64,000 nucleotides of DNA from the IMG/VR virus record IMGVR_UViG_3300022660_000062, positions 1-64,000 of that record, one strand, 5' to 3'. The stretch is from a virus. Taxonomy: Duplodnaviria; Heunggongvirae; Uroviricota; Caudoviricetes. Below the pieces are notes generated by a model that was given only the letters and a program-made list of their open reading frames with translations, had not been told where the DNA came from and did no database searches. Shown here piece by piece: positions 2,697 to 2,788 of the stretch; position 1 is the first letter of the stretch, and every line of letters begins with the position of its first letter. The position numbers and the translations under genes are program-made.

Positions 2697-2788
2697 AGGG
2701 GTGTCGCATAGTGGCGATTGCAGCGGTCTCCAAAACCGCCGAGTACTGATCATGCTCCACCTAGGTTCGAGTCCTAGCGCCCCTGCCA
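2697..2788 (+). tRNA. Type II (long variable arm) tRNA with anticodon CCA; Ser-like body, identity uncertain
   Basis: Acceptor AGGGGTG/CGCCCCT, discriminator G, 3-bp D-stem GCA/TGC, anticodon stem GCGGT/ACCGC with loop CTCCAAA, variable arm of about 21 nt, T-arm CTAGG-TTCGAGT-CCTAG, CCA encoded. Confidence 0.6.

Follow-up and report, generated by a model that had tools for sequence, protein, structure and literature searches.

Introduction

In bacteria, a long variable arm is classically reserved for the transfer RNAs (tRNAs) of leucine (Leu), serine (Ser), tyrosine (Tyr) and selenocysteine (Sec). Among the closest described systems are the allo-tRNAs, which feature 8/4 or 9/3 acceptor/T helices as well as long D-stems with tetraloops, have an inferred Ser identity and act as missense or nonsense suppressors (Mukai et al., PMC5389517). 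The nematode nev-tRNAs are eukaryotic class II tRNAs with an anticodon that is neither Leu nor Ser, and they are described as decoders in an alternative code for leucine (PMC3333845). Here we analyse a tRNA gene with the tryptophan (Trp) anticodon CCA and a class II architecture, located at positions 2697-2788 of a 64,000-nucleotide (nt) stretch of phage DNA, termed “the window” (Caudoviricetes; positions 1 to 64,000 of IMG/VR record IMGVR_UViG_3300022660_000062). The gene likely encodes a Trp-charged decoder of UGG codons, which is built on a class II chassis derived from tRNA-Tyr and belongs to a widespread phage family.

The identity sets used for comparison were compiled by Giege and Eriani 2023 (PMC9976931). 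The bacterial Trp set comprises the anticodon, the base pairs 1-72 to 5-68, A9 and, as a major element in Escherichia coli and Bacillus subtilis, G73. Bacterial tRNA-Tyr is specified by A73, G34/U35 and G1-C72, and the threonine (Thr) set includes G1-C72, C2-G71 and the anticodon. The bacterial Ser determinants listed in Table 1 of the compilation are G73, C72, G2-C71, R4-Y69, C11-G24, G30-C40 and a large variable region, the size of which counts more than its sequence. Moreover, most bacterial tRNA-Ser show absolute conservation of G1-C72, and G73 is an antideterminant for leucyl-tRNA synthetase (LeuRS) and tyrosyl-tRNA synthetase (TyrRS), for the latter as reported in E. coli tRNA-Ser (PMC9976931).

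Architecture of the tRNA gene

The gene is composed of the following elements (coordinates in the window, strand):

2697..2788, +: tRNA gene of 92 nt with anticodon CCA, class II architecture and encoded CCA end (ARAGORN, Rfam)
2697..2703, +: 5' strand of the acceptor stem, AGGGGTG; partner CGCCCCT at 2778-2784
2704..2722, +: U8, C9, D-arm (GCA-T-AGTGGCGA-T-TGC) and A26; the 19-mer TCGCATAGTGGCGATTGCA is the Tyr-type scaffold module
2723..2739, +: anticodon arm GCGGT-CTCCAAA-ACCGC, with the anticodon CCA at 2730-2732
2740..2760, +: variable arm of 21 nt, consisting of C, the stem strands GAGTA/TGCTC, the loop CTGATCA and CAC (ARAGORN, ViennaRNA)
2761..2777, +: T arm CTAGG-TTCGAGT-CCTAG with a 5-bp stem
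2785, +: discriminator G73, a G in 51/52 scaffold Trp tRNAs

ARAGORN calls a tRNA-Trp(cca) with exactly these ends on the plus strand, and the Rfam tRNA model RF00005 matches the gene with 50.0 bits (gathering score 29, E=1e-07). The acceptor stem is formed by the pairs A1-U72, G2-C71, G3-C70, G4-C69, G5-C68, U6.G67 and G7-C66. The D-stem comprises the three pairs G10-C25, C11-G24 and A12-U23, and is followed by U13 and U22, which do not pair. The variable arm forms a 5-bp stem with a 7-nt loop and leaves one unpaired nucleotide at its 5' base and three (CAC) at its 3' base. A reading of this DNA from its letters alone (hereafter the sequence-only reading) had proposed a class II tRNA at these positions with a 3-bp D-stem, G2-C71, G73 and an arm of about 21 nt, and all of these elements are borne out by ARAGORN, Rfam and the cloverleaf. 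Likewise, the anticodon CCA in the loop CTCCAAA is retrieved by ARAGORN in the same register, and its combination with a class II shape and G73 is indeed unusual.

The minimum free energy fold recovers the acceptor, anticodon, variable and T helices. Its thermodynamic z-score is -1.43 and thus not significant, as is usual for tRNAs, and because of this value the fold energy alone is not taken as the structural evidence. The variable loop contains the palindrome TGATCA, which holds GATC, at 2746-2751. The palindrome is kept in a second 92-nt copy of the gene (L320, see below), though the adjoining stem positions differ.

Trp identity elements on a phage tRNA-Tyr scaffold

The gene carries the Trp determinants G73, A1-U72, G2-C71, G3-C70, G4-C69, G5-C68 and C34C35A36. 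The class I architecture, i.e., a variable loop of 4-5 nt and a 4-bp D-stem, is replaced by the 21-nt arm and the 3-bp D-stem. The class II body, the frame of the arm and the D-arm are those of tRNA-Tyr, and in place of the Tyr elements A73, G34-U35 and G1-C72 the gene has G73, C34-C35 and A1-U72.

Relatives of the gene were initially collected with a pattern that included the D-arm, and thus their D-arm conservation was partly imposed by the search. Viral contigs were therefore rescanned with the D-arm 19-mer TCGCATAGYGGCRATTGCA alone. The 114 occurrences at new loci carried the anticodons GTA (85), TGT (26), CTT (2) and CTA (1), and the scan also recovered Trp (CCA) loci that were already known. 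A Ser anticodon was not present on any of the 114 exact 19-mers. This census replaced a ranking by D-arm edit distance, in which Tyr was nearest, but the Tyr genes concerned had been found by their similarity to the query. Because GTA and TGT dominate the census, CCA loci are recovered and Ser anticodons are lacking, the scaffold is best described as primarily a phage tRNA-Tyr body, which is used for Thr and Trp too.

The nucleotides outside the anticodon differ between the isotypes that share this body. Scaffold Tyr tRNAs carry A73 (62/62) and G1-C72 (59/62), and scaffold Thr tRNAs, also with A73, carry the pairs G1-C72 and C2-G71 (22/22 for either pair). Scaffold Trp tRNAs have G73 in 51 of 52 sequences and otherwise variable acceptor stems, with A1-U72 in 25/52 and G2-C71 in 22/52. 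The association of G73 with CCA versus GTA on the shared scaffold is highly significant (Fisher p=6e-32), and the acceptor and discriminator identity elements, as read from the genes, switch with the anticodon. In tRNA arrays chosen regardless of Trp, all 45 Trp tRNAs possess G73; 43 of these are canonical (70-76 nt) and two are long, such that about 4% of the phage Trp tRNAs in this sample are of the long form. Since G73 tracks CCA on the scaffold and is present in every Trp tRNA of the unselected arrays, it is most simply read as the phage Trp discriminator rather than as a Ser hallmark of the body.

The variable arm points in the same direction as the D-arm. The geometry of the arm was derived from 539 phage tRNAs parsed by ARAGORN:

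Phage Ser arm: mostly 1 unpaired 3' nt (1/1 or 0/1), stem of 5-7 bp
Phage Leu arm: about 2 unpaired 3' nt, stem of 3-4 bp
Phage Tyr arm: 3 unpaired 3' nt, stem of 3 bp
Long-arm Trp: 3 unpaired 3' nt, stem of mostly 3-4 bp

The arm of the window gene has the frame 1/stem/3 and hence is Tyr-like, yet its stem comprises 5 bp. The Ser-type base with about one unpaired 3' nucleotide is not found; the three unpaired nucleotides CAC occupy this place.

Further evidence comes from the tRNA arrays. Among 44 arrays that carry the long form and comprise at least 10 tRNAs, 38 (86%) possess no other Trp tRNA, including arrays that span 18-21 specificities. Such a distribution fits a Trp tRNA in regular use, whereas a missense suppressor would not be expected to show it.

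The gene is thus a mosaic, which joins the acceptor stem, anticodon arm, T-loop and G73 of a bacterial tRNA-Trp to the D-arm and the variable-arm layout of phage tRNA-Tyr. We consider it to be probably a functional Trp tRNA of a large phage, which probably infects Bacillota. The host tryptophanyl-tRNA synthetase (TrpRS) would recognize C34-C35-A36, G73 and the acceptor pairs 1-72 to 5-68 and charge the tRNA with Trp, and the charged tRNA would then decode UGG. G73 and the CCA anticodon would keep TyrRS off, and the Tyr-type arm base with its three unpaired nucleotides, in concert with U72, would largely exclude seryl-tRNA synthetase (SerRS). The family presumably originated from a phage tRNA-Tyr-like gene, either via identity switching or via recombination within tRNA arrays.

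The same scaffold occurs with other anticodons. Within the window, a Thr(UGU) gene of 86 nt (22550..22635, +) adopts the Tyr-type class II scaffold (TC-CCAT-AGCGGCCGA-TTGG); its variable arm measures 14 nt, and it has G1-C72 and C2-G71. In viral contigs, 22 distinct sequences make up the Thr family with the exact D-arm. The 19-nt D-arm further occurs with a lysine (Lys) anticodon (CUU), A73 and a 17-nt variable region, and in one instance CTA takes the place of the anticodon, such that the gene could be an amber suppressor; these cases stem from L285 and one additional locus. Finally, an 8.3-kb segment (L330) of the 1.46-Mb metagenome contig Ga0308158_10000004 harbours 47 tRNA genes, including one long-arm and two canonical Trp tRNAs, and hence an exceptionally dense array on a contig of great length.

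A nearly phage-specific family with a covarying cloverleaf

The Tyr-scaffold tRNA-Trp family was defined by the D-arm 19-mer, a YTCCAAA loop, a variable region of 11-22 nt, G73 and 7/5 helices, and the window gene fits this pattern. A scan for the D-arm and the CCA loop revealed about 22 phage contigs with Trp(cca) genes of 82-90 nt, nearly all of which lie within tRNA arrays. Adding a metagenome scan, the family amounts to 52 distinct sequences from viral and metagenome contigs. Most of these have 3-bp variable stems, compared to 5 bp in the window gene. Longer stems are found in L349, whose arm of 20 nt forms 5 bp and whose acceptor strand is likewise AGGGGTG, and in L031 with a 4-bp stem. 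The family is also present in the cultured Vibrio phages VBP47 and VBP32 as an 84-nt member, which is annotated as a plain tRNA-Trp. In VBP47 (L001), the gene is directly followed at 2635-2712 by a tRNA-like sequence with an 8-nt anticodon loop (tgtg), annotated as a tRNA-OTHER pseudogene.

The same pattern was applied to 185,579 cellular genomes and yielded 66 matches, nearly all of them due to chance and outside tRNAs; two are tRNAs. One of the two tRNAs is located on a phage-like 13-kb contig with 12 tRNAs, which was binned into a metagenome-assembled genome (MAG). The other is an 8/4 allo-tRNA-like gene on an Acidobacteriota contig. Hence, the Trp scaffold family is nearly phage-specific. 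The Acidobacteriota gene (L097, MAG contig CBDEGM010000002.1, 4408-4504) is 97 nt long, carries the anticodon CCA and a discriminator C and looks like an allo-tRNA, with an 8-bp acceptor stem, a 4-bp T stem, a long variable arm and a D-arm that resembles the phage scaffold.

The cloverleaf of the family is strongly supported by covariation among 17 distinct aligned sequences, one of which is the window gene. Pairing is retained in 95.1% of cells compared to 72.5% in shuffles, and none of 500 shuffles reaches the observed value. Both sides change in 18 of the 24 pairs, and the covariation score is 0.651, with slid-partner controls at or below 0.157. All seven acceptor pairs covary, both sides change in four of the five T-stem pairs, and covariation is also seen at the three core pairs of the variable stem, where the second pair is A-U in eight and G-C in eight sequences. 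The 7-bp acceptor stem and the 5-bp T stem are fully paired in all 17 sequences, and G30-C40 and C9 are likewise invariant (17/17).

A second copy of the 92-nt form is encoded on a 1-kb metagenome contig (L320), the flanks of which are unrelated to the window. The two copies differ at six positions. One difference is in the D-loop, two constitute a compensatory change of an anticodon-stem pair (C28-G42 to U28-A42), and three are located in the variable arm, which refolds to give a stem of some 6 bp, interrupted by a single bulged base, and retains its frame. Judging from this copy, the 92-nt form itself is maintained. A further contig, L020, carries an identical sequence and ends inside the tRNA; it stems from the same phage and was left out as an independent relative. 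The order of the tRNA genes upstream of Trp is the same in L020.

Alternative explanations

The alternative that survives best is a Ser-accepting missense tRNA or a dual Trp/Ser tRNA, which SerRS would charge via the long arm and G73, resulting in Ser at some UGG codons. Several points weigh against a Trp assignment, and most of them bear on this alternative. Six of the seven Ser determinants of Table 1 are found in the window gene, namely G73, G2-C71, R4-Y69 (as G4-C69), C11-G24, G30-C40 and a large variable region, and the 5-bp stem of the latter is as long as some Ser arms. In a comparison with anticodon-masked profile hidden Markov models built from an unbiased small phage set, Ser ranks first (26.9 bits) and Trp fourth (17.3 bits). 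Moreover, allo-tRNAs are able to insert Ser in E. coli although their anticodons are not those of Ser (PMC5389517). The Trp element A9 is replaced by C9, a nucleotide that also occurs in at least one canonical 74-nt phage Trp tRNA (L254). The identity assignment relies on rules worked out for E. coli and B. subtilis tRNAs, and with 64 kb of the genome in view a second Trp tRNA might be encoded elsewhere.

The case for Ser is countered by several lines of evidence, and overall we regard this alternative as unlikely. The single Ser determinant that fails is C72: the window gene has U72 in A1-U72, as opposed to the conserved G1-C72 of most bacterial tRNA-Ser. The 3' base of the arm leaves three nucleotides unpaired versus mostly one in phage Ser tRNAs. 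Across the family, G2-C71 is a minority pair (22/52) and most arms have 3-bp stems, the D-arm never occurs with a Ser anticodon, and G73 follows CCA and not the scaffold. As the sole Trp tRNA in 86% of the large arrays, a Ser-inserting tRNA would place Ser at every UGG and harm the phage proteins. G73, G2-C71, R4-Y69 and G30-C40 are also present in the E. coli tRNA-Trp gene trpT, which lacks C11-G24. Isotype profiles were rejected as a decisive test, as their ranking depends on the training set; with a set enriched by the D-arm scan, Tyr comes first with 43.1 bits. A generic isotype classifier may thus flag a mismatch between the body and the anticodon of the window gene.

The sequence-only reading had labelled the gene “serine-type” and considered a Ser-inserting missense tRNA. 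The label finds no support in a gene with a Trp-type acceptor and anticodon arm and a Tyr-like arm base, whose D-arm occurs 114 times without a Ser anticodon, and the missense idea is at odds with the association of G73 with CCA and its presence in 45/45 unselected phage Trp tRNAs. What stands of the Ser reading is the count of six out of seven Ser determinants and the first rank of Ser in the unbiased profiles. Because four Ser determinants are common to ordinary tRNA-Trp, the acquisition of a long arm by a Trp body is a risky change. The exclusion of SerRS is argued only by U72 and the Tyr-type arm base, and some mischarging with Ser (partial serylation) is possible for the window copy.

Less probable still is a mainly non-translational role as a tRNA-shaped RNA, in which the Tyr-like arm would be functional and the RNA would serve as a decoy or resistant substitute against host nucleases or toxins that target tRNAs. 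Phage tRNAs are known to counter tRNA-cleaving defences (PMC11555353, PMC13096335). Long arms on several independent phage Trp bodies and the near restriction of the family to phages agree with such a role. A resistant substitute, however, would function as a Trp tRNA all the same and therefore largely overlaps with the Trp-charged UGG decoder favoured here. A pure decoy, on the other hand, needs neither a strict G73, nor a CCA anticodon, a covarying acceptor stem or an encoded CCA end. Furthermore, no defence system aimed at tRNA-Trp was identified in this analysis.

A Trp tRNA that reads UGA is very improbable. In this scenario, the altered D-arm and core would allow the CCA anticodon to read UGA by C-A mispairing, leading to readthrough or recoding. 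D-arm mutants of E. coli tRNA-Trp reportedly read UGA (the Hirsh suppressor), and the D-arm and position 9 of the window gene differ from canonical tRNA-Trp. Yet, TGA is the stop codon of 48 of the 121 open reading frames (ORFs) in the window (TAA, 60; TAG, 13), and no long ORFs are fused when TGA is read as sense. Under the standard code, 86% of the plus strand is coding, and the gaps are RNA genes. Suppressor anticodons do not occur among the window tRNAs, and the many unrelated phages that carry the family show no evidence of a common recoded gene. Stop-codon recoding was rejected on these grounds, and no support is seen for the opal-suppressor idea of the sequence-only reading, which had itself noticed no TGA-interrupted genes, as the ORF analysis affirms. 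UGG accounts for 1.65% of the window codons.

Finally, decay of a tRNA-Trp damaged by an insertion into the variable loop is barely credible: the debris upstream (2531-2696) and the modest z-score are compatible with it, but every helix is intact, the L320 copy, situated in other genomic surroundings, preserves the length of 92 nt through compensatory changes, the family of 52 distinct sequences shows strong covariation, and the gene has an encoded CCA end and a terminator behind it.

Long arms on other tRNA bodies

Long variable arms on phage Trp tRNAs extend beyond the Tyr-type scaffold. An unbiased scan, anchored solely on the CCA loop and the T-loop, detected long arms on several other Trp bodies, all with G73. 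One of these is a canonical Trp body with a 4-bp D-stem, into which a GGCG-GTAA-CGCC hairpin is inserted. Phage arrays also contain recurrent long arms on isoleucine (Ile; UAU), Thr(UGU), Lys and asparagine (Asn) tRNAs, and the window harbours three long-arm genes of this kind (Trp, Thr and Ile). The Ile(UAU) gene (19690-19784, +; 95 nt) has a canonical body with a 4-bp D-stem and an inserted variable hairpin; Ile(UAU) genes of 89-96 nt recur in other phage arrays (L004, L023, L030).

Because long arms arose on several different Trp bodies, these genes suggest that the long arm is under selection. Candidate causes are the escape from tRNA-targeting defences, an increased robustness of folding, or simple tolerance combined with duplication in the arrays. 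A more far-reaching scheme would be a modular Tyr-type chassis that is re-addressed to Trp, Thr and occasionally Lys, with an arm selected for invisibility to defences or for a second identity. In this case, copies like the window gene, with a 5-bp stem, G73 and G2-C71, would be natural dual Trp/Ser acceptors that confer a regulated Ser-for-Trp ambiguity at UGG. We deem this scheme unlikely.

Genomic context

The window represents a large phage-like segment with a guanine-cytosine content of about 40%, 21 ARAGORN tRNA calls and one ROOL RNA, and essentially all of its genes are on the plus strand. Encoded proteins include topoisomerase II subunits, SPFH proteins, a 5'-nucleotidase as well as BspA-type leucine-rich repeat and Listeria-Bacteroides repeat proteins. 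The closest relatives of the topoisomerase are found in large Bacillus, Listeria and Streptococcus phages (41-45% amino acid identity), and for this reason a Bacillota host is likely. A megablast comparison of the whole region with cultured phages returned short tRNA matches only and no close cultured relative, and the downstream ORF (2859-3620), used as a query for syntenic relatives, produced no matches. A phage-encoded aminoacyl-tRNA synthetase is not found among the window ORFs of at least 200 amino acids.

The Trp gene is the last in a tRNA cluster with the order Gln, Asn, Lys, Gly, Pro(CGG), Trp. Its neighbours are:

396..2530, +: upstream tRNA cluster Gln(UUG), Asn(GUU), Lys(UUU), Gly(UCC), Pro(CGG), with ORFs between Asn and Lys
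2794..2827, +: intrinsic-terminator-like hairpin with 10 bp (at 2794-2817), a TTCG loop and a T-run, which closes the tRNA cluster

Past the terminator, a promoter-like site (TTGATT-17-TATAAT) precedes the next ORF. The region between Pro(CGG) and Trp (2531-2696, +) contains tRNA-like debris, which is called by neither ARAGORN nor Rfam, even at relaxed settings. It includes a T-arm-like GAAGGTTCAAGTCCTTC near 2594-2610 and the repeated motif GAAGCAG at about 2539 and at 2625.

The window comprises additional unusual genes. A Leu(UAA) gene (13317-13453, +) has an anticodon loop that is expanded by about 50 inserted nt; it scores 42.8 bits with Rfam and is called by ARAGORN only if introns are allowed. 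A tRNA-like gene at 12054-12131 (+) has a 6-nt anticodon loop, is designated “tRNA-???” with the anticodon “at” by ARAGORN and reaches 33 bits with Rfam, just above the threshold. The ROOL RNA (Rfam RF03087, 281.9 bits, full-length) is encoded at 22662-23344 (+), directly downstream of Thr(UGU) in a tRNA-rich region. Situated between tRNA genes, a 556-amino acid ORF (15928-17598, +) matches the PHROG 850 “RNA-binding protein” (7.8e-44) and shows a weak Pfam match to TROVE (Ro60-like) below the curated cut-off. A 327-amino acid ORF (50349-51332, +) is Hint/intein-like, with a PT-HINT match of 30.5 bits and weaker matches to Vint and Hom_end_hint.

Implications

A family found almost exclusively in phages, in which a tRNA-Tyr body bears the identities of Trp and Thr, constitutes an exception to the tRNA class rules. 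The searchable literature, the coverage of which is incomplete, yielded no description of class II Trp or Thr tRNAs on a Tyr scaffold in phages, and the family is apparently undescribed. The scaffold family resembles a natural identity-transplantation experiment, in which known identity nucleotides switch with the anticodon. Its members suggest that TrpRS and threonyl-tRNA synthetase (ThrRS) tolerate long arms, and that SerRS, which acts independently of the anticodon, is held off by the geometry of the arm rather than by its absence. They further suggest that the diversity of phage tRNA arrays grows as one shared chassis is re-addressed. Annotation with isotype models will tend to flag such tRNAs as mismatches or suppressors, and this could yield false inferences of recoding in phages. 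Finally, the scaffold tRNAs could serve as a chassis for the engineering of orthogonal tRNAs.

Comparison with known systems

The canonical counterpart of the window gene is E. coli trpT, which was fetched by its coordinates for comparison; a blastn search with the window tRNA against E. coli genomes gave no match at E<=1. The 3' acceptor strand including G73 is identical to trpT, and the 5' strand deviates by one base (C6 to U6), giving a U.G pair. The T-loop and all 7/7 positions of the anticodon loop (CTCCAAA) are identical, and the anticodon stem agrees in four of its five pairs. As in canonical bacterial tRNA-Trp, a CCA anticodon, G73, the pairs A1-U72 through G5-C68, G30-C40 and 7/5 helices are present. 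In contrast, canonical tRNA-Trp belongs to class I and has A9, a D-stem of 4 bp and a variable loop of 5 nt, whereas the window gene possesses a 3-bp D-stem, C9 and a 21-nt arm.

With class II tRNA-Tyr(GUA), the gene shares the arm frame 1/stem/3 and a 19-nt D-arm that is exactly the one of at least 85 phage tRNA-Tyr genes. Unlike tRNA-Tyr, it has G73 instead of A73, A1-U72 instead of G1-C72, CCA instead of GUA and an arm stem of 5 bp instead of the usual 3 bp. Bacterial tRNA-Ser resembles the gene in its long arm, G73, G2-C71, R4-Y69, C11-G24, G30-C40 and 3-bp D-stem. It differs by C72 in place of U72, one rather than three unpaired 3' nucleotides and the anticodon, which in the window gene is a non-Ser one; moreover, Ser anticodons are lacking from the D-arm family.

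The nev-tRNAs (PMC3333845), as described, are tRNAs in which the anticodon and the charging disagree; the evidence on the window gene, in contrast, points to cognate charging. Similar to the allo-tRNAs (PMC5389517), some of which occur in phages, the window tRNA combines a long arm with the anticodon of a class I amino acid. Unlike these, it has 7/5 helices, and its identity elements agree with its anticodon.

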